IMG/VR virus record: IMGVR_UViG_3300045988_115137
Direction: 5' to 3' (one strand)
Origin: a virus
Taxonomy: Duplodnaviria > Heunggongvirae > Uroviricota > Caudoviricetes
Length of the DNA stretch: 21,316 bases
Of this stretch, positions 3,439-11,670 are shown piece by piece; position 1 is the first letter of the stretch; each line of letters begins with the position of its first letter. A model generated the notes under the pieces. It was not told where the DNA came from, searched no databases, and saw only the letters and a program-made list of their open reading frames with translations. Position numbers and translations under genes: made by a program.

Positions 3439-3710
3439 GTATTCGTATTGAAATTGGCGAACGTTATGTCGTTACCAGTGACAGCTTTCAGTTTATTCTC
3501 CACGAGAAAAAGAGAGCGGAAAGCGGTAAAAACGCCGGTCAGGAATGGCTGGCGGTGGTTGGTTATTACCCGAAATTAAGCCAGCTCGTTTCCGGCCTGA
3601 TGCATCACGATATTCTGACCGGAAGCGCAAAGTCTTTTGCTGATTTAAACGCGCAGGTTGAGCAACTCAGCAAGCGTTGTTCAGAGGCTTTTGGCTCATA
3701 TGGCCGTTAA
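3435..3710 (+). CDS. Hypothetical early protein (orf83 position)
   Basis: 91-aa ORF; ATG 3435 overlaps the upstream stop (ATGA); its 3' end overlaps the start of A by 11 nt. Confidence 0.5.
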   Translation: MSIRIEIGERYVVTSDSFQFILHEKKRAESGKNAGQEWLAVVGYYPKLSQLVSGLMHHDILTGSAKSFADLNAQVEQLSKRCSEAFGSYGR

Positions 3711-5979
3711 AGCCTCCGGGCGTTTTGTCCCTCCGTCAGCATTTGCCGCAGGCACCGGTGAGACGTTTACCGGTGCTTATGCATGGAACGCGCCACGCGA
3801 GGCCGTCGGGCGCGAAAGACCCCTTACACGTGACGAGATGCGTCAGGTGCAAGGTGTTTTATCCACGATTAATCGCCTGCCTTACTTTTTGCGCTCGCTG
3901 TTTACTTCACGCTATGACTACATCCGGCGCAATAAAAGCCCGGTGCACGGGTTTTATTTCCTCACATCCACTTTTCAGCGTCGTTTATGGCCGCGCATTG
4001 AGCGCGTTAATCAGCGCCATGAAATGAACACCGACGCGTCGTTGCTGTTTCTGTCAGAGCGTGACCACTATGCGCGCCTGCCTGGAATGAATGACAAGGA
4101 GCTGAAAAAGTTTGCCGCCCGTATCTCATCGCAGCTTTTCATAATGTATGAGGAACTCTGCGATGCCTGGGTGGATGCGCATGGCGAGAAAGAATCGCTG
4201 TTTACGGATGAGGCGCAGGCTCACCTGTATGGTCATGTTGCTGGCGCTGCACGTGCTTTCAATATTTCCCCGCTCTACTGGAAAAAATACCGTAAAGGGC
4301 AGATGACCACGAGGCAGGCATATTCTGCCATTGCCCGTCTGTTTAACGATGAATGGTGGACTCATCAGCTTAAAGGCCAGCGTATGCGCTGGCATGAGGC
4401 GTTACTGATTGCTGTCGGGGAGGTCAATAAAGACCGTTCTCCTTATGCCAGTAAACATGCCATTCGTGATGTGCGTGCGCGCCGCCAGGCAAATCTGGAA
4501 TTTCTTAAATCGTGTGACCTTGAAAACAGGGAAACCGGCGAGCGCATCGACCTTATCAGTAAGGTGATGGGCAGTATTTCTAATCCAGAAATTCGCCGGA
4601 TGGAGCTGATGAACACCATCGCCGGTATTGAGCGTTACGCCGCCGCAGAGGGTGATGTGGGGATGTTTATCACGCTGACCGCGCCGTCAAAGTATCACCC
4701 GACACGTCAGGTCGGAAAAGGCGAAAGTAAAACCGTGCAGCTTAATCACGGCTGGAACGATGAGGCATTTAATCCAAAGGATGCGCAGCGTTATCTCTGC
4801 CGTATCTGGAGCCTGATGCGCACGGCATTCAAGGATAATGATTTACAGGTCTACGGTTTGCGTGTCGTCGAGCCACACCACGACGGAACGCCGCACTGGC
4901 ATATGATGCTTTTTTGTAATTCACGCCAGCGTAACCAGATTATCGAAATCATGCGTCGCTATGCGCTCAAAGAGGATGGCGACGAAAGAGGAGCCGCGCG
5001 AAACCGTTTTCAGGCAAAACACCTTAACCGGGGCGGTGCTGCGGGATATATCGCGAAATACATTTCAAAAAACATCGACGGCTATGCACTGGATGGTCAG
5101 CTCGATAACGACACCGGCAGGCCGCTGAAAGACACTGCAGCGGCTGTTACCGCATGGGCGTCAACGTGGCGCATCCCGCAATTTAAAACGGTTGGCCTGC
5201 CGACAATGGGGGCTTACCGTGAACTACGCAAATTGCCGCGCGGCGTCAGCATTGCTGATGAGTTTGACGAGCGCGTCGAGGCTGCACGCGCCGCCGCAGA
5301 CAGTGGTGATTTTGCGTTGTATATCAGCGCGCAGGGTGGGGCAAATGTCCCGCGCGATTGTCAGACTGTCAGAGTCGCCCGTAGCCCGTCGGATGAAGTT
5401 AACGAGTACGAGGAAGAAGTCGAGAGAGTGGTCGGCATTTACGCGCCGCATCTCGGCGCGCGTCATATTCATATCACCAGAACGACGGACTGGCGCATTG
5501 TGCCGAAAGTTCCGGTCGTTGAGCCTTTGACTTTAAAAAGCGGCATCGCCGCGCCTCGGAGTCCTGTCAATAACTGTGGAAAGCTCACCGGTGGTGATAC
5601 TTCGTTACCGGCTCCCACACCTTCTGAGCACGCCGCAGCAGTGCTTAATCTGGTAGATGACGGTGTTATCGAATGGAATGACCCGGAGGTCGTGAGGGCG
5701 CTCAGAGGTGCATTAAAACACGGCCTGAGAAGACCAAACCGTCAGCAAAGAAACGGAAGCCCGTTAAAACCGCATGAAATAGCGCCATCGGCCAGACTGA
5801 CCCGGTCTGAACGATTGCAAATCACCCGTATCCGCGTTGACCTTGCTCAGAACGGTATCAGGCCGCAGCGATGGGAGCTTGAGGCGCTGGCGCGTGGCGC
5901 GACCGTAAATTATGACGGGAAAAAATTCACGTATCCGGTCGCTGATGAGTGGTCGGGATTCTGGCATCAATTTGAGTAA
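3700..5979 (+). CDS. A: Rolling-circle replication initiator endonuclease (P2 gpA-like)
   Basis: 759 aa from ATG 3700 (MAVKASGRF...); the track start at 3658 is a TTG codon. An HUH-type motif (PHWHMMLF) and a paired-tyrosine motif (GYIAKYISK, Y-x3-Y) are visible. Size is close to the ~761 aa I recall for P2 A. Confidence 0.9.
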   Translation: MAVKASGRFVPPSAFAAGTGETFTGAYAWNAPREAVGRERPLTRDEMRQVQGVLSTINRLPYFLRSLFTSRYDYIRRNKSPVHGFYFLTSTFQRRLWPRIERVNQRHEMNTDASLLFLSERDHYARLPGMNDKELKKFAARISSQLFIMYEELCDAWVDAHGEKESLFTDEAQAHLYGHVAGAARAFNISPLYWKKYRKGQMTTRQAYSAIARLFNDEWWTHQLKGQRMRWHEALLIAVGEVNKDRSPYASKHAIRDVRARRQANLEFLKSCDLENRETGERIDLISKVMGSISNPEIRRMELMNTIAGIERYAAAEGDVGMFITLTAPSKYHPTRQVGKGESKTVQLNHGWNDEAFNPKDAQRYLCRIWSLMRTAFKDNDLQVYGLRVVEPHHDGTPHWHMMLFCNSRQRNQIIEIMRRYALKEDGDERGAARNRFQAKHLNRGGAAGYIAKYISKNIDGYALDGQLDNDTGRPLKDTAAAVTAWASTWRIPQFKTVGLPTMGAYRELRKLPRGVSIADEFDERVEAARAAADSGDFALYISAQGGANVPRDCQTVRVARSPSDEVNEYEEEVERVVGIYAPHLGARHIHITRTTDWRIVPKVPVVEPLTLKSGIAAPRSPVNNCGKLTGGDTSLPAPTPSEHAAAVLNLVDDGVIEWNDPEVVRALRGALKHGLRRPNRQQRNGSPLKPHEIAPSARLTRSERLQITRIRVDLAQNGIRPQRWELEALARGATVNYDGKKFTYPVADEWSGFWHQFE

Positions 5980-6068: not shown

Positions 6069-6077
6069 TGTTATAAT
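6069..6077 (+). promoter_or_regulatory. Extended -10 promoter element (TGtTATAAT) for the plus-strand cargo operon
   Basis: Exact TGnTATAAT match at 6069-6077, about 29 nt upstream of the first cargo ATG (6106), in an AT-rich leader. The -35 is weak. The palindrome TTGCATGCA (6037-6045) lies where a -35 or operator would be. Confidence 0.4.
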
Positions 6078-6105
6078 GCATTACTTAAAAATGTTGGAGA
6101 TAAAA

Positions 6106-6297
6106 ATGTTAAAGCCTGCAGATGTTAATTGTTTGAAAAGCGGTGGATTTAAAATGACTGTATCTGACTCTACTGAAACTCATGCTAAATGTATTTGGCA
6201 TGATAAAGAAGGAGTTTTGCACGAGGAGTCATTCTCCATTGATTTACTGGAAATAGCAGAGAGTAAAAGTGGTATGCTTTGTCGTCCACGTAAGTGA
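6106..6297 (+). CDS. Small hypothetical protein, first gene of the cargo operon
   Basis: ~63 codons from ATG 6106, with GGAG at 6096-6099. The track's 91-aa version starts at a TTG at 6022. Alternative in-frame ATGs exist at 6091 and 6154, so the start is uncertain. AT-rich; ends 27 nt before the 226-aa gene. Confidence 0.35.
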   Translation: MLKPADVNCLKSGGFKMTVSDSTETHAKCIWHDKEGVLHEESFSIDLLEIAESKSGMLCRPRK

Positions 6298-6324
6298 ATC
6301 ATAATAAAATTCACGGGGGAAAGT

Positions 6325-7005
6325 ATGAAACAATACAGCGAATTAGAAAACAATGTTAAGAGATTCATTGTTGAGCATGAAAAAGGGATTTCTATTGATG
6401 ATATTCATCATAAGTTCCGGATGAAGGATGGTCAGAATCGCAAGATGGCAGATTATCTTATTGATAATAAAAAGATAATTTTGGAGATGAAAAGTCTTTT
6501 TTCTGACAGGGTCAAGAATGTCAATGATAAACTGAATGAGTTGGTTAAAACTGATAGTTGGCTTGCAAAAAACTGGCATGGTGCTATTCATTTAGAAGAG
6601 TTGATAAAAAGACACCCAGACTCAAAGCGATTTAGAAATGATATAATGAACTTTGCTTATGAAAATATTAAAACAAAGATAGTTAAGGAAGCTAATAAGC
6701 AAATAAATGCAACAAAGGATGTTTTGGATTTAAATGACTCGATTGGCGGGTTGATTTTGTTAAATGATAATGTCTTTTCACATGAGTCTAATTATTTGTC
6801 AGATGAAATATTATATTTGCTAGGCACAAAGAGATATTCGAGTGTTGAGTTTGTGGTTTATATTGCAAAATTGATTGATAAACAGGTTGATGTTTGTGTG
6901 CTACTTGACAGTCAATCTAAAAATAAAAATTATATTGAATGGTATATGAATAATGTTTTTTTATTGAACTGGGCGTCTTTTAATAAATATGCAATAAAGA
7001 TGTAG
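6325..7005 (+). CDS. Hypothetical protein, candidate anti-phage defense component (226 aa, no recognisable domain)
   Basis: Clean ORF with a strong SD (GGGGGAAAG) 6 nt before ATG 6325. Lys/Asn/Ile-rich composition; about 30% GC by hand count of 6301-6360. Sits at the A-cos variable locus in the tin-like position and orientation. No Walker A, HNH, reverse-transcriptase or zinc-finger motif seen. Confidence 0.6.
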   Translation: MKQYSELENNVKRFIVEHEKGISIDDIHHKFRMKDGQNRKMADYLIDNKKIILEMKSLFSDRVKNVNDKLNELVKTDSWLAKNWHGAIHLEELIKRHPDSKRFRNDIMNFAYENIKTKIVKEANKQINATKDVLDLNDSIGGLILLNDNVFSHESNYLSDEILYLLGTKRYSSVEFVVYIAKLIDKQVDVCVLLDSQSKNKNYIEWYMNNVFLLNWASFNKYAIKM

Positions 7006-7324
7006 TGGTGTGGATGGATATGAAATGAGTCAACCAAGATGCACCTTGGTCAGTAATCTCATGTGAGATACCACATATAACACCAAAAGTGTCAGGTTGA
7101 TGGCCATTGTTCACCGTTTACAGCAGATTATGGTCAACGAAAATCTGACGCCTGACGAGCTGGTCGGGTGTGCCGAAATAGTCTGGGATAATTACGGGCG
7201 GTTTAACTATATCGGTCAGTCCAGAGTTGCGCCACCACCACGCAGACGATAGAGAACGCCGCCAGTCGTGAAACTTGTTTTCAGGCTGGCGGGGTTGAAC
7301 AACGAGCGAAGTGAGGCGTTAGCA

Positions 7325-8266
7325 TTAAGTTAATTTTAATGAATGGTACTCTATCGAGCTGATTGTAGATGCGATATATTTACGATCATTTACAGAGAGT
7401 ATTGCCGCTAGTAGACGACATACCAGAGCCTGCATTTGTAGCAATATATCGCTACCATATTGACAATCATTGATACTAGAGAAACCAAGCGGTTGCCCAT
7501 TAAAAATGGCTTCATGAAAATTATCATTGCGTATAACTGAAACATTACATTCATCTGTTGCCCATGACGGGATTTTTACACCGTAATTTTCGCACATCCA
7601 ATATACTCTATTTTGATGAGATGGTTTTTTCTCTTTAATGACTTTATCCCTTTCATCCCATGCTATAGCAAAACAGCAATCAAGAGCCATATAAAGATAC
7701 TGGAATTTCTCAAAGGAAAGGTATAGTGGGTTATGTGACAGGAATAGGGAGTGTATCACCGCAGCTATTCTTTTAATGGAGCGATCATCTTTTTGTTTGT
7801 CTTTTATATAGTTAAGTGCTAGCTCTATTACTTCTTTTTCAGAGCATCCAACGAGAATAAAGTCGGTTAACTTAGTGGGCTTGATAGTGGTTGCATCAAG
7901 AAAACCAGCGTCAGTGGTTGTCAATCTTATACCCTTGAAAAAAGAGAGGCACCACACAACAAAGTTGAGAGTTTCTAACGAGGATGTGTTTTTTAATTTT
8001 AGTGTGTGCGTTTTGGGCATGCCGAATACTCGGTAACTATAAGGCATTGTGCATGTGTCACCATTAAGGTTATATACCTTTCGATTCCCAGGGTATATCC
8101 AACCATTAACAACGTTTTTATCATTGTTAATACGTTCCACGTTCTCAATAAGACCGGGTAAAGTACGCAAAGAAAATTGTTCAGTCTCAATGTTAACTTC
8201 TACTGGATAGTATCCAAACTCCGAAATAATCTCATTTGGTTGCTGTTCGTCAACTTCACCTTGCAT
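7325..8266 (-). CDS. Hypothetical protein, candidate anti-phage defense/abortive-infection component (313 aa, no recognisable domain)
   Basis: ORF with ATG at 8264-8266 (minus) preceded by GGAGAAAG at 6-nt spacing. AT-rich. Transcribed leftward from the cos-proximal side, like old in P2, but it lacks the Walker A/ATPase signature expected of Old. Confidence 0.6.
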   Translation of the reverse strand: MQGEVDEQQPNEIISEFGYYPVEVNIETEQFSLRTLPGLIENVERINNDKNVVNGWIYPGNRKVYNLNGDTCTMPYSYRVFGMPKTHTLKLKNTSSLETLNFVVWCLSFFKGIRLTTTDAGFLDATTIKPTKLTDFILVGCSEKEVIELALNYIKDKQKDDRSIKRIAAVIHSLFLSHNPLYLSFEKFQYLYMALDCCFAIAWDERDKVIKEKKPSHQNRVYWMCENYGVKIPSWATDECNVSVIRNDNFHEAIFNGQPLGFSSINDCQYGSDILLQMQALVCRLLAAILSVNDRKYIASTISSIEYHSLKLT

Positions 8267-8504: not shown

Positions 8505-8523
8505 GGCGAGGCGGGGAAAGCAC
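8505..8523. other. cos site (19-nt cohesive end sequence, P2-type)
   Basis: The sequence GGCGAGGCGGGGAAAGCAC at 8505-8523 matches the P2 cohesive-end sequence as I recall it. It lies between the variable locus and portal gene Q, as in P2. Confidence 0.6.
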
Positions 8524-8555: not shown

Positions 8556-9725
8556 TCAGCGTCTCAGCGCGTCGTGACGGCGCTTAGTCTGCCCGTTGAG
8601 GCGTTGTGTGTCTGCGGGGTGTTTTGTGCGGTGGTGAGCGTGTGAGGGGGGATGACGGGGTGTAAAAAAGCCGCCCGAAGGCGGGGAGGTTATGCGCTGG
8701 TCAGTGTCCAGTGAGTAGTTTTTAAAGCGGATGACCTCCTGACCGAGCCAGCCGTTTATTTCCCGAATTCTGTCCTGTAACGGGATAAGCTCATTGCGGA
8801 CAAAGACCTTTGCCACTTTCTCAATATCTCCCAGTGACCCGACGTTCTCCGGCTTGCCGCCCATCAACTGAAAGGGGATACGGTGCGCGTCCAGCAGGTC
8901 AGCGGCGCTGGCTTTTTTGATATTAAAAAAATCGTCCTTCGTTGCCACTTCACTGAGCGGGATAATTTTAATGCCGTCGGCTTTCCCCTGCGGGGCATAG
9001 AGAAACAGGTTTTTAAAGTTGTTGCGGCCTTTCGACTTCACCATGTTTTCGCGAAGCGTTTCGATATCGTTGCGATCCTGCACGGCATCGGTGACGTACA
9101 TGATGTATCCGGCATGTGCGCCGTTTTCGTAATACTTGCGGCGGAACAGCGTGGCCGACTCATTCAGCCAGGCAGAATTAAGGGCGCTGAGATATTCCGG
9201 CAGGCCGTACAGCTCCTGATTAATATCCGGCTCCAGCAGGTGAAACACGGAGCCGGGCGCGAAGGCTGTCGGCTCGTTGAAGGACGGCACCCACCAGTAA
9301 ACATCCTCCTCCACGCCACGACGGGTATATTTGGCCGGTGAGGTTTCCAGTCTGATGACCTTACCGGTGGTGCTGTAACGCTTTTCCAGAAACGCATTAC
9401 CGAACACCAGAAAATCCAGCACAAAGCGGCTGAAATCCTGTTGCGAAAGCCACGGATGCGGGATAAATGTCGAGGCCAGAATATTGCGTTTAACGTAAAT
9501 CGGTGAGCTGTGATGCACGGCAGCACGCAGGCTTTTTGCCAGACCGGTAAAGCTGACCGGCGGCTCATACCATCTGCCGTTACTGATGCACTCGACGTAA
9601 TCCAGAATGTCACGGCGGTCGAGTACCGGCACCGGCTCACCAAAGGTGAATGCCTCCATTTTCGGGGCGCTGGCGGTCATTGTTTTTGCCGCAGGTTGCG
9701 GTGTTTTCCCTTTTTTCTTGCTCAT
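8556..9725 (-). CDS. Q: Portal protein (P2 gpQ-like); ORF as found carries a probable C-terminal read-through extension
   Basis: 389-aa ORF starting MSKKKGKTPQ..., with its ATG overlapping the stop of P (TGATG). I recall P2 Q as 344 aa. The last ~45 codons are Pro/Arg/His-rich and cross the terminator hairpin, so the true product probably ends near plus-coordinate 8691. Confidence 0.85.
   Translation of the reverse strand: MSKKKGKTPQPAAKTMTASAPKMEAFTFGEPVPVLDRRDILDYVECISNGRWYEPPVSFTGLAKSLRAAVHHSSPIYVKRNILASTFIPHPWLSQQDFSRFVLDFLVFGNAFLEKRYSTTGKVIRLETSPAKYTRRGVEEDVYWWVPSFNEPTAFAPGSVFHLLEPDINQELYGLPEYLSALNSAWLNESATLFRRKYYENGAHAGYIMYVTDAVQDRNDIETLRENMVKSKGRNNFKNLFLYAPQGKADGIKIIPLSEVATKDDFFNIKKASAADLLDAHRIPFQLMGGKPENVGSLGDIEKVAKVFVRNELIPLQDRIREINGWLGQEVIRFKNYSLDTDQRITSPPSGGFFTPRHPPSHAHHRTKHPADTQRLNGQTKRRHDALRR
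8664..8685 (-). terminator. Putative intrinsic terminator at the end of the leftward P-Q late operon
   Basis: On the minus strand a GC stem CCGCC / GGCGG with a 4-nt loop is followed directly by TTTTTT (plus strand: AAAAAA 8664-8669, then CCGCC-CGAA-GGCGG 8671-8684). Confidence 0.45.
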
Positions 9726-11497
9726 CAGTAAAACTCCAGAATGGTGGATGTCAGCGGGGTGCTGATACCGGCGGTGAGTGGCTCATTTAACAGGGCGTGC
9801 ATGGTCGCCCAGGCGAGGTCGGCGTGGCTGGCTTCCTCGCTGCGGCTGGCCTCATAGGTGGCGCTGCGTCCGCTGCTGGTCATGGTCTTGCGGATAGCCA
9901 TAAACGAGCTGGTGATGTCGGTGGCGCTGACGTCATATTCCAGACAGCCACGGCGGATAACGTCTTTTGCCTTGAGCACCATTGCGGTTTTCATTTCCGG
10001 CGTGTAGCGGATATCGCGCGCGGCGGGATAGAACGAGCGCACGAGCTGGAACACGCCGACACCGAGGCCGGTGGCATCAATTCCGATGTATTCGACGTTG
10101 TATTTTTCGGTGAGTTTGCGGATGGATTCAGCCTGAGTGGCAAAGTCCATGCCTTTCCACTGGTGACGCTCAAGTATTCTGAATTTGCCACCGGCCACCA
10201 CCGGCGGTGCCAGTACCACGCATCCGGCGCTGTCGCCACGGTGTGACGGGTCGTAACCAATCCATACCGGTCGGGAGCCGAACGGATTTGCGGCAAACGG
10301 CGCATAGTCTTCCCATTCTTCCAGCGTGTCGACCATGCAGCGTTGCAGCTCCTCGAACGGGAATACCGACGCCTTGTCGTCAACAAATTCACACATGAAC
10401 AGGTTTTTAAAATCGTCGGCGCTGTTTTCGCGTTTAAGCTGCTCAATGTCGAACAATGTGCAGCCACCTTTCAGGGCGTCCTCAATGGTGACAATCTGCC
10501 GCCACTGGCCGTCCGCACAGAGAAGACCTCCGGCAAGGGCGTTATGACTGACGTCGATTTCCACGCGTTCGGCGGCGCTGGCGCGTCCCCGGTTAAACAG
10601 TTCACCGGACCAGAACGGATAGGCGTCGTGCGCCAGCGTGGACGGGGTGGAGAAATAGGTCGAGCGCAGGTGACTCTGTGAGGCCATACCTGATGCCACC
10701 TTACGCAGTACCTGAAAATTCGGGATCCAGAAAATCTCGTCGACGTACAGGTCGCCGTTATGGCTCTGTGCGGTGTTGGAGTTGGTGCCGAGAAAAATCA
10801 GTTTTGCGCCGTTATTGCCCAGGACAATCGGGTCACCGGTCAGGTCAACGTCAACCAGCCGGGCAAAGGCGATGATGTATTCACGGAACACATACGCCTG
10901 CGTTTTACTGGCCGACAGAAAAATCTGGTTATGACCGGTTTTCAGGGCGCGCAGCAGTGCCTCGCGGGAAAAATAAAACGTCGCGCCAATCTGGCGGGAT
11001 TTCAGGATATCGCGGATGCGGTGCTCAAGCCCGGCGCGATACCAGTGCAACTGATAGTCGAAAGACTGCTCAAAGAAAATCTGCTCCAGCTTTTCGATGG
11101 CCTCGTCACTGAAAAAATTTTTTTTCGGTTTGCGCCGCCCGCCTTTGTTGCGGTTAGCGACGTTCGGATTAAGGTCTGCCTCGTTGCCGGTCTGGCTGTA
11201 ACGATTTACCCGTGCCAGTCGTTCAATCTGGCGTCCCAGCAGGTCAATTTCCTTGAAGTCACCGCCGGTTTTCTGCGGTTTGATGATGAGCTGGGTCAGC
11301 CGCGCTTCCAGGCTCATTTCGACACGGCTGATGGGGGCAACGCTGTCCCAGCCGTCGCGCTGTTTCCAGCTCTGCACCGTCGGGCGTTTCATCTGCAACA
11401 TGGCGGCAATCTGCGGCACGGAAAACCCCTGCCAGTACAGCAGCGCCGCCTGACGACGCGGGTCGTGTAAAAGAGTGGTGTCTGTGGTGATGGTCAT
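9725..11497 (-). CDS. P: Terminase large (ATPase) subunit (P2 gpP-like)
   Basis: 590 aa from ATG 11495-11497 (MTITTDTT...); the track start at 11527 is a TTG. The length matches my recollection of P2 P. Its stop overlaps the Q start. Confidence 0.9.
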   Translation of the reverse strand: MTITTDTTLLHDPRRQAALLYWQGFSVPQIAAMLQMKRPTVQSWKQRDGWDSVAPISRVEMSLEARLTQLIIKPQKTGGDFKEIDLLGRQIERLARVNRYSQTGNEADLNPNVANRNKGGRRKPKKNFFSDEAIEKLEQIFFEQSFDYQLHWYRAGLEHRIRDILKSRQIGATFYFSREALLRALKTGHNQIFLSASKTQAYVFREYIIAFARLVDVDLTGDPIVLGNNGAKLIFLGTNSNTAQSHNGDLYVDEIFWIPNFQVLRKVASGMASQSHLRSTYFSTPSTLAHDAYPFWSGELFNRGRASAAERVEIDVSHNALAGGLLCADGQWRQIVTIEDALKGGCTLFDIEQLKRENSADDFKNLFMCEFVDDKASVFPFEELQRCMVDTLEEWEDYAPFAANPFGSRPVWIGYDPSHRGDSAGCVVLAPPVVAGGKFRILERHQWKGMDFATQAESIRKLTEKYNVEYIGIDATGLGVGVFQLVRSFYPAARDIRYTPEMKTAMVLKAKDVIRRGCLEYDVSATDITSSFMAIRKTMTSSGRSATYEASRSEEASHADLAWATMHALLNEPLTAGISTPLTSTILEFY

Positions 11498-11670
11498 GAA
11501 TACCTCGCCGTGATGAATACACGGCAAGGCTACTGAGTCGCGCCCCGCGATTCGCTAAGGTGCTGTTGTGTCAGTGATAAGCCATCCGGGACTGATGGCG
11601 GAGGATGCGCATCGTCGGGAAACTGATGCCGACATGTGACTCCTCTAATCACTATTCAGGACTCCTGACA
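11498..11670. promoter_or_regulatory. Divergent late promoter region between P and O (putative)
   Basis: 173-bp interval between the divergent P (minus) and O (plus) starts, where P2 places two activator-dependent late promoters. I found no exact TGT-N12-ACA dyad by eye, so this is positional inference only. Confidence 0.3.

Follow-up and report, generated by a model that had tools for sequence, protein, structure and literature searches.

ORF226, a candidate PD-(D/E)xK nuclease effector in the gpA–gpQ hotspot of a P2-like prophage

ORF226, a protein of 226 aa encoded in a P2-like prophage, is assigned here to the PD-(D/E)xK (restriction-endonuclease-like) superfamily through a predicted fold that is well supported. 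The function favored for it, with a probability of about 0.5, is that of a candidate mobile nuclease effector directed against phages or mobile elements and carried in a P2 cassette together with a gene for a DUF2158 protein. It is proposed that the prophage would provide its host with ORF226 as a metal-dependent DNA nuclease, which would cleave foreign DNA as it enters or replicates. The DNA of the host would be spared by the substrate specificity of the protein itself, or by its autoinhibition, and not through an antitoxin; relatives with an intact motif persist without a partner, which makes intrinsic sparing of the host more likely than sparing supplied by an antitoxin. On this view, the DUF2158 protein would be a P2-specific modulator, i.e., a sensor, an adaptor, or an inhibitor. 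We infer both the nuclease activity and the role in defence, and regard ORF226 as a plausible candidate phage-defence gene.

ORF226 and its protein family

The gene extends from ATG to TAG at positions 6325..7005 (+) of the DNA analysed, a stretch of 21,316 nucleotides (IMG/VR record IMGVR_UViG_3300045988_115137) called below the window. A candidate Shine–Dalgarno sequence, GGGGGA (6315-6320), precedes the ATG by 5 nt, and the start MK(Q/K) is common to 13/13 orthologues. The computed properties of the product are those of a soluble, single-domain protein of 26.7 kDa with pI 8.7, rich in Lys (11.9%), Asn (10.2%), and Ile (8.8%). The GC content of the gene is 30%, compared to about 55% in the backbone, and the dN/dS of 0.08-0.13 against orthologues of 64-77% identity indicates purifying selection. 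ORF226 is a genuine, strongly conserved gene. An earlier reading of the window, made from the sequence only, had described it as well formed (ribosome-binding site, ATG, stop), Lys/Asn/Ile-rich, and with no motif that could be placed; this description stands, and scans of the protein against Pfam, NCBIfam, and PADLOC were empty.

The name “orphan”, given to the protein in the same reading, has to be abandoned. ORF226 belongs to phrog_20483, a family of unknown function in PHROGs. A word-indexed search retrieved 26 close relatives, exclusively from Enterobacterales, and a profile search among 1.84 billion cluster representatives retrieved 348 at E<=1e-3 and 76 at E<=1e-10, with hosts including Serratia, Vibrio, Shewanella, Nitrospirota, and Rifleibacterium. 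The source names that were looked up all read “hypothetical protein”. Family members fall into two main length classes, of ~225-275 aa and ~325-350 aa, with a few larger fusions. In all 79 members scanned, the ORF226 domain is left uncovered by Pfam, NCBIfam, and PADLOC models, and the relatives that match PADLOC do so only via SEC-C-like tails. At E<=1, PADLOC-DB 2.0.0, which includes the Rousset and Vassallo systems, returned nothing for ORF226, the DUF2158 protein, or the products of two neighboring ORFs, of 51 aa and ORF313, described below. The family is thus widespread and unnamed, and has no model in Pfam, NCBIfam, or PADLOC.

Predicted fold and putative active site

The pattern of conservation was taken from 136 relatives that are mutually <50% identical. 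D43 is conserved in 134/134 aligned relatives, E54 and K56 in 135/135 each, and Q126 in 136/136. Conservation is nearly as high for T130 (131/136) and A123 (130/136), and N147 and D25 are found in 131 and 127 of the 136, respectively, with an acidic residue at position 148 in 115 of them. In the gene, the codons of D43 (6451-6453), E54 (6484-6486), and K56 (6490-6492) lie within 6451..6492 (+) and form a D...ExK pattern on consecutive beta strands. The codons of A123-N-K-Q126-I-N-A-T130 (6691..6714, +) encode a conserved helix motif, A-x-x-Q-I-x-x-T-K, in helix 113-133.

AlphaFold2 models of identical topology were obtained from alignments of 13 sequences (pLDDT 81.5, pTM 0.79) and 60 sequences (pLDDT 93.5, pTM 0.88). 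In the model, two N-terminal helices are followed by a beta hairpin, 44-46 / 51-58, with D43 just before its first strand and E54 and K56 within the second. A helical insertion comes next, with Q126 and T130 on its last helix (113-133), and then a strand, 140-148, which ends in N147-D148 and leads into an alpha-beta-beta-alpha arrangement. The predicted model has the restriction-endonuclease-like alpha/beta core, and D and (D/E)-x-K are placed on adjacent beta strands, as is characteristic of the PD-(D/E)xK superfamily. The predicted active site would consist of D43, E54-x-K56, and Q126, with D25 and N147-D148 close by.

Profile searches of the PDB with the 13- and 60-sequence alignments gave noise only (designed repeat proteins, cytochrome b5, asparaginase), and linked the sequence to no characterised nuclease. 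The comparison of predicted structures suggested in the sequence-only reading was made by Foldseek with a model that preceded the one of pLDDT 93.5, and no significant match was obtained in the PDB or BFVD (best E 0.18 and 0.013, respectively). Membership in Mrr_cat (PF04471) and type IV restriction was considered and rejected, as ORF226 has no Pfam match and hhalign against the N-terminal domains of fused relatives gave a probability of 0.3%.

The gpA–gpQ hotspot of the prophage

The list of open reading frames and the annotation of an E. coli locus of 99.7% identity identify the window as a P2-like prophage. The genes of the integrase (97-1092) and the C repressor (1186-1485) are on the minus strand. 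The left border of the hotspot is gpA (3658..5979, +; the RefSeq start corresponds to window 3694), named “replication endonuclease” in the 99.7%-identical locus and 75-99% identical to gpA of other P2-like loci (tblastn). The cohesive-end sequence of P2, GGCGAGGCGGGGAAAGCAC, has an exact match at 8505..8523 (+), with 0.01 matches expected by chance, and marks cos. The right border is the gene of the gpQ portal (8556..9725, -); gpQ and the gpP terminase together occupy 8556-11527 on the minus strand, and capsid, lysis, and tail genes follow. The interval between gpA and gpQ has a GC content of 30-36%, compared to 52-58% in the backbone, and the island in which ORF226 lies has 30-32%. In P2, this hotspot carries tin and old, and it was shown experimentally that it houses many anti-phage systems (Rousset et al., 2022, PMC9122126; Vassallo et al., 2022, PMC9519451).

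Two features of the backbone may be noted. With 389 aa, gpQ of the window is longer than its counterparts of P2 and several relatives (344-346 aa); the surplus C-terminal residues point toward cos, and the long form is also present in some IMG/VR copies. In a close prophage of E. coli strain 4/0, a frameshifted gene of the PAPS-reductase family lies directly 5' of gpA (L001:1-798), which suggests a further variable spot in the early operon.

The position of ORF226 was earlier compared to that of P2 tin. In P2 (AF063097), A (28034-30319, +) is followed by orf91 (+), tin (30684-31445, -), and old (-); tin and old are cos-proximal and co-transcribed, with transcript starts near cos, on the strand opposite to A. 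ORF226 does lie 3' of gpA and on the strand of gpA, as was stated. However, the analogy of orientation fails because tin is on the minus strand, and tin occupies a cos-proximal slot; in P2, it is orf91 that comes directly 3' of A and shares its strand. ORF226 fills the A-proximal orf91/DUF3850 slot, and the slot resembling that of tin/old, close to cos, is filled by ORF313 (7325..8266, -), on the strand used by tin and old in P2.

ORF313 is an independent cargo. Of the complete E. coli genomes, 93 contain it, and ORF226 is missing from many of these; the most divergent alleles share about 78% DNA identity. In Citrobacter another gene stands in its place, and in one metagenomic P2-like locus it is missing. 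No Pfam, NCBIfam, or PADLOC match was found for it, only phrog_5937. Since its distribution differs from that of ORF226 (93 vs 27 genomes, replaced or absent at other ORF226 loci), ORF313 was rejected as an obligate partner. A spacer of normal GC content (7065..7322, +), containing a 51-aa ORF (7097-7252; phrog_11386), separates the two genes and forms the right boundary of the ORF226 cassette. The RefSeq name of the 51-aa ORF, “meiotically up-regulated 80 protein”, seems to be an artefact of annotation. The spacer is present in 374 E. coli genomes, compared to 27 for ORF226, and elsewhere it usually comes after gpA and a DUF3850 gene, with variable cargo to its right. This context in 374 genomes shows that two or more slots exist in the P2 hotspot, which are divided by the spacer and swap independently.

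The DUF2158–ORF226 cassette

Directly after gpA, a cassette of about 1.05 kb and 30-38% GC comprises ORF226 and, before it, a gene for a 63-aa DUF2158 (YodC-like) protein (6106..6297, +; Shine–Dalgarno sequence GGAG at 6096-6099), whose end is 27 nt from the ORF226 start. The assignment of the small gene is based on Pfam PF09926 (27.4 bits vs a gathering cutoff of 22.3, E 2.7e-6), with which the RefSeq annotation agrees, and on phrog_3261 (E 2.5e-17). Its dN/dS is 0.20-0.33. Both genes are present in exactly the same 27/5426 complete E. coli genomes (0.5%) and in the same 2 phage records. They also occur together in Citrobacter and in three metagenomic P2-like loci, where ORF226 is 75-77% and the DUF2158 protein 71-74% identical, and where the rest of the hotspot contains another gene or is empty. 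The pair thus travels and diverges together in five P2-like lineages. The earlier proposal that ORF226 acts with the small upstream ORF is consistent with this strict co-location and co-divergence in P2-like phages, and the DUF2158 protein is presumed to be its partner.

Also proposed from the sequence was a role of ORF226 as the effector or sensor of a cargo module. The cargo part agrees with its placement as accessory cargo in the gpA–gpQ hotspot, and of the two roles, effector is likelier than sensor because of the nuclease fold and the invariant catalytic motif. The interpretation is partly supported: its cargo element held, and its effector and partner-ORF elements agree with the data; the analogy to tin in orientation and slot and the orphan status did not hold, and of the original observation the gene itself is confirmed.

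The gene pair had been deposited and catalogued previously. ORF226 is contained in the variable-region record AM157369 of P2-EC67 (the locus of Odegrip et al., 2006) and in phage vB_EcoM-720R8. In Table S5B of Rousset et al. (2022), “system #63”, labeled “DUF2158”, is ORF226 plus the DUF2158 gene, found at 67/18,150 P2 hotspot loci. It corresponds to ORF73+ORF226 of P2-EC67; two substitutions, I119V and S172P, distinguish protein1 from the protein of the window, and the 63-aa DUF2158 product is listed as protein2. Neither the sequence nor the accession of ORF226 is present in the table of tested systems (Table S2) of that study (PMC9122126), and no functional study was found in the literature on DUF2158, YodC, P2-EC67, and ORF226.

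Relatives outside the P2 cassette

Related loci were also sought more widely. None was found in a one-genome-per-species set, the IMG/VR search gave only copies of at least 99% identity, and PLSDB plasmids gave no ORF226 match by tblastn, although Pantoea IncFII contigs hold a relative of 64% identity. On these Pantoea IncFII plasmids the relative stands alone. It is also present in a P2-like remnant (L016:3037-6046), after a DUF559/MTES_1575 gene, with a cos-like site on one side and a truncated gpQ on the other; the remnant and plasmid copies share 81% DNA identity over 866 bp. The placement in the remnant represents a third insertion place, and a second, divergent relative likewise lies directly 3' of a DUF559/MTES_1575 endonuclease-like gene (L021:4268-5961).

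A relative of 41% identity is located on a Serratia fonticola-type contig (L002:5327-7539), 33 bp 3' of a CI-like repressor gene (HTH_3 plus Peptidase_S24) and on the same strand. It is situated where an integrated prophage element ends, next to a serine recombinase and a defence gene of the DUF4238 type (PADLOC E 5e-18). The layout of this locus resembles lambda cI-rexAB. A 340-aa relative is found beside a type I RM system in a chromosomal island, another is flanked by a prophage lysis cassette and a repressor, and a Vibrio relative lies among GIY-YIG, DUF4145, Mrr-like, and SLATT genes. Nearby DUF2158 genes are missing at the loci of the Pantoea plasmids, the P2-like remnant, Serratia, Vibrio, and Rifleibacterium, where the motif is intact.

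Larger architectures are also present in the family. Relatives of ~560-740 aa (P0046, P0047, P0062, P0129, P0042, P0055, and P0111) combine an N-terminal Mrr_cat-like domain with the ORF226-family domain at ~350-510. In the Mrr-like domain of these fusions the (D/E/Q)xK position is unconserved, D..ExK..Q is intact in the family domain, and some of the fusions bear a C-terminal SEC-C motif. A 346-aa relative (P0044) is encoded in an operon with diadenylate-cyclase-domain and LmuA-like proteins on the metagenome contig SRR12816581_206457 (L010:2223-5947). Its gene overlaps the stop of a gene encoding 497 aa, whose product has DACND, DACNH, and DAC (diadenylate cyclase) domains; ahead of the latter gene lies that of a 312-aa protein whose N-terminus is LmuA-like, and a 72-aa ORF follows it. 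This locus may be a cyclase-signalling conflict system with the ORF226-family nuclease as its effector. Judged by gene neighborhoods in a small sample of about a dozen loci, the distribution of the relatives is that expected of a mobile defence-type effector.

Alternative explanations

The location of the cassette is relevant to a different function, in which ORF226 would be an early gene of benefit to the phage, i.e., an accessory nuclease expressed in lytic growth by read-through from the P2 early operon, with no protection of the lysogen. Such a nuclease would, for example, degrade host or competitor DNA, process replication or recombination intermediates, or counter host defence. ORF226 immediately follows gpA, shares its strand, and takes the place held by orf91 in P2 and by DUF3850 in many relatives, and a consensus scan found no terminator-like site between A and the cassette. 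This slot allows read-through from the early operon, which would suit a benefit to the phage as well as defence. However, some relatives are not carried by phages but lie on IncFII plasmids, by type I RM in chromosomal islands, and next to DUF4238, which is at odds with a purely phage-serving role. The relative placed just 3' of a prophage CI-like repressor gene, on the same strand, is expected to be expressed during lysogeny. The cassette itself may have its own promoter: a candidate, TGTTATAAT (6069..6077, +), matches in sequence a perfect extended -10 element, 29 nt 5' of the DUF2158 ATG, and was omitted by the consensus scanner because no -35 hexamer fits. With this element, the cassette would probably be transcribed independently of the repressed early operon. 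Finally, the cassette is present in just 0.5% of the E. coli genomes searched, and is therefore dispensable for P2 biology. A gene serving only the phage is, on this evidence, unlikely.

The arrangement of the pair is also reminiscent of a toxin–antitoxin or addiction module, with ORF226 as a nuclease toxin and the DUF2158 protein as its antitoxin, which would stabilise the prophage and possibly also cause abortive infection. A small gene 5' of a larger, nuclease-fold gene on one strand, with the short gap given above, and the strict co-occurrence and co-divergence in P2-like phages agree with such a module. It is nevertheless improbable, as motif-intact relatives of 64%, 41%, and lower identity have no DUF2158 gene nearby, DUF2158 (YodC) also occurs as stand-alone chromosomal genes (PMC5437024), and no match to a PADLOC or TA-type family was found. 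Assignment to the type II systems, where the toxin is always beside its cognate antitoxin, was rejected for the same absence of DUF2158 next to relatives.

PD-(D/E)xK folds are now and then reused as binding modules, and a catalytically inert ORF226 would be a DNA-binding regulator, a sensor, or a structural partner, with the true effector encoded elsewhere, e.g., by ORF313, which is adjacent in the window. The invariance of the acidic-acidic-lysine triad and Q126 across 136 divergent relatives makes this very unlikely, and ORF313 is unlinked to ORF226, as described above.

A Tin homologue or analogue, i.e., a T-even exclusion protein, was suggested by the similar length (226 vs 252 aa), the AT-rich composition, and the shared A–Q region, yet direct alignment with Tin (AAD03308) gave a BLASTP E of 0.94, the 60-sequence family profile gave an hhalign probability of 0.2%, and nothing in Tin aligns with the nuclease-type motif; tin also lies on the opposite strand and in a different slot, so that homology is refuted at the sequence level and a Tin-like function is hardly credible.

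The preferred reading of ORF226 as a nuclease effector can be extended, more tentatively. ORF226 could be the founding member of a broad, stand-alone PD-(D/E)xK anti-phage family, with methyltransferase-free discrimination between foreign and host DNA and, in P2-like phages, control by DUF2158. This joint proposal, which is possible and falls short of an even chance, would also take in the variants of ~335 aa, those fused to Mrr-like domains, and those linked to a cyclase.

Significance

If confirmed as defence, the cassette would add a compact nuclease system of ~1 kb to the catalogue of the P2 hotspot, where a candidate nuclease is what specialists would expect. A family without a Pfam model is defined, with about 350 sequence clusters distributed over prophages, plasmids, and defence islands, and the map of the locus is corrected, with ORF226 in the orf91/DUF3850 slot and not in that of tin/old. 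A tractable question is also raised, namely how a PD-(D/E)xK nuclease with no partner spares the DNA of its host. The strict pairing with DUF2158 in P2-like phages could be the first indication of what the YodC family does; if DUF2158 controls ORF226, then a first functional handle on this stress-induced family of small proteins would be available.

Comparison with known systems

Among known nucleases, a parallel in the motif is found in the RecB/Cas4/YqaJ group (QxxxY helix), where, as in ORF226, the helix that follows the ExK strand bears an invariant Q, and the weak, non-significant Foldseek matches of ORF226 included Cas4 SSO0001 and YqaJ-like proteins. Unlike this group, ORF226 has T at the position of Y in its A-x-x-Q-I-x-x-T-K motif, no Fe-S cysteine cluster, and no Pfam match. 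NucC of CBASS and the type II endonuclease domains of BsmI, PspGI, NgoMIV, and BstYI are 6-12% identical to ORF226, with no match at the profile level. ORF226 differs from them by a long helical insertion (58-134) between strands 3 and 4, and the window contains no cyclase, methyltransferase, or other such partner. A CBASS-type, NucC-like nuclease activated by a signal was therefore rejected for ORF226; the hotspot has no cyclase, and only the distant 346-aa P0044 follows a DAC-domain gene.

Within the hotspot itself, P2 tin resembles ORF226 in being accessory, in its place between gpA and gpQ, in its length, and in its low GC content, and differs in sequence, profile, strand, and slot. Its product, which is not a nuclease, stops T-even phages by way of the ssDNA-binding protein of these phages. 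P2 Old is a nuclease-based exclusion gene of the same hotspot, but its product of 586 aa combines an ATPase with TOPRIM, has another fold, and is encoded on the opposite strand. The nearest known system is system #63 (Rousset et al., 2022), which is the same gene pair, catalogued there without fold, family, or function. ORF226 was thus catalogued earlier and never characterised, and is placed here in an unnamed PD-(D/E)xK family.
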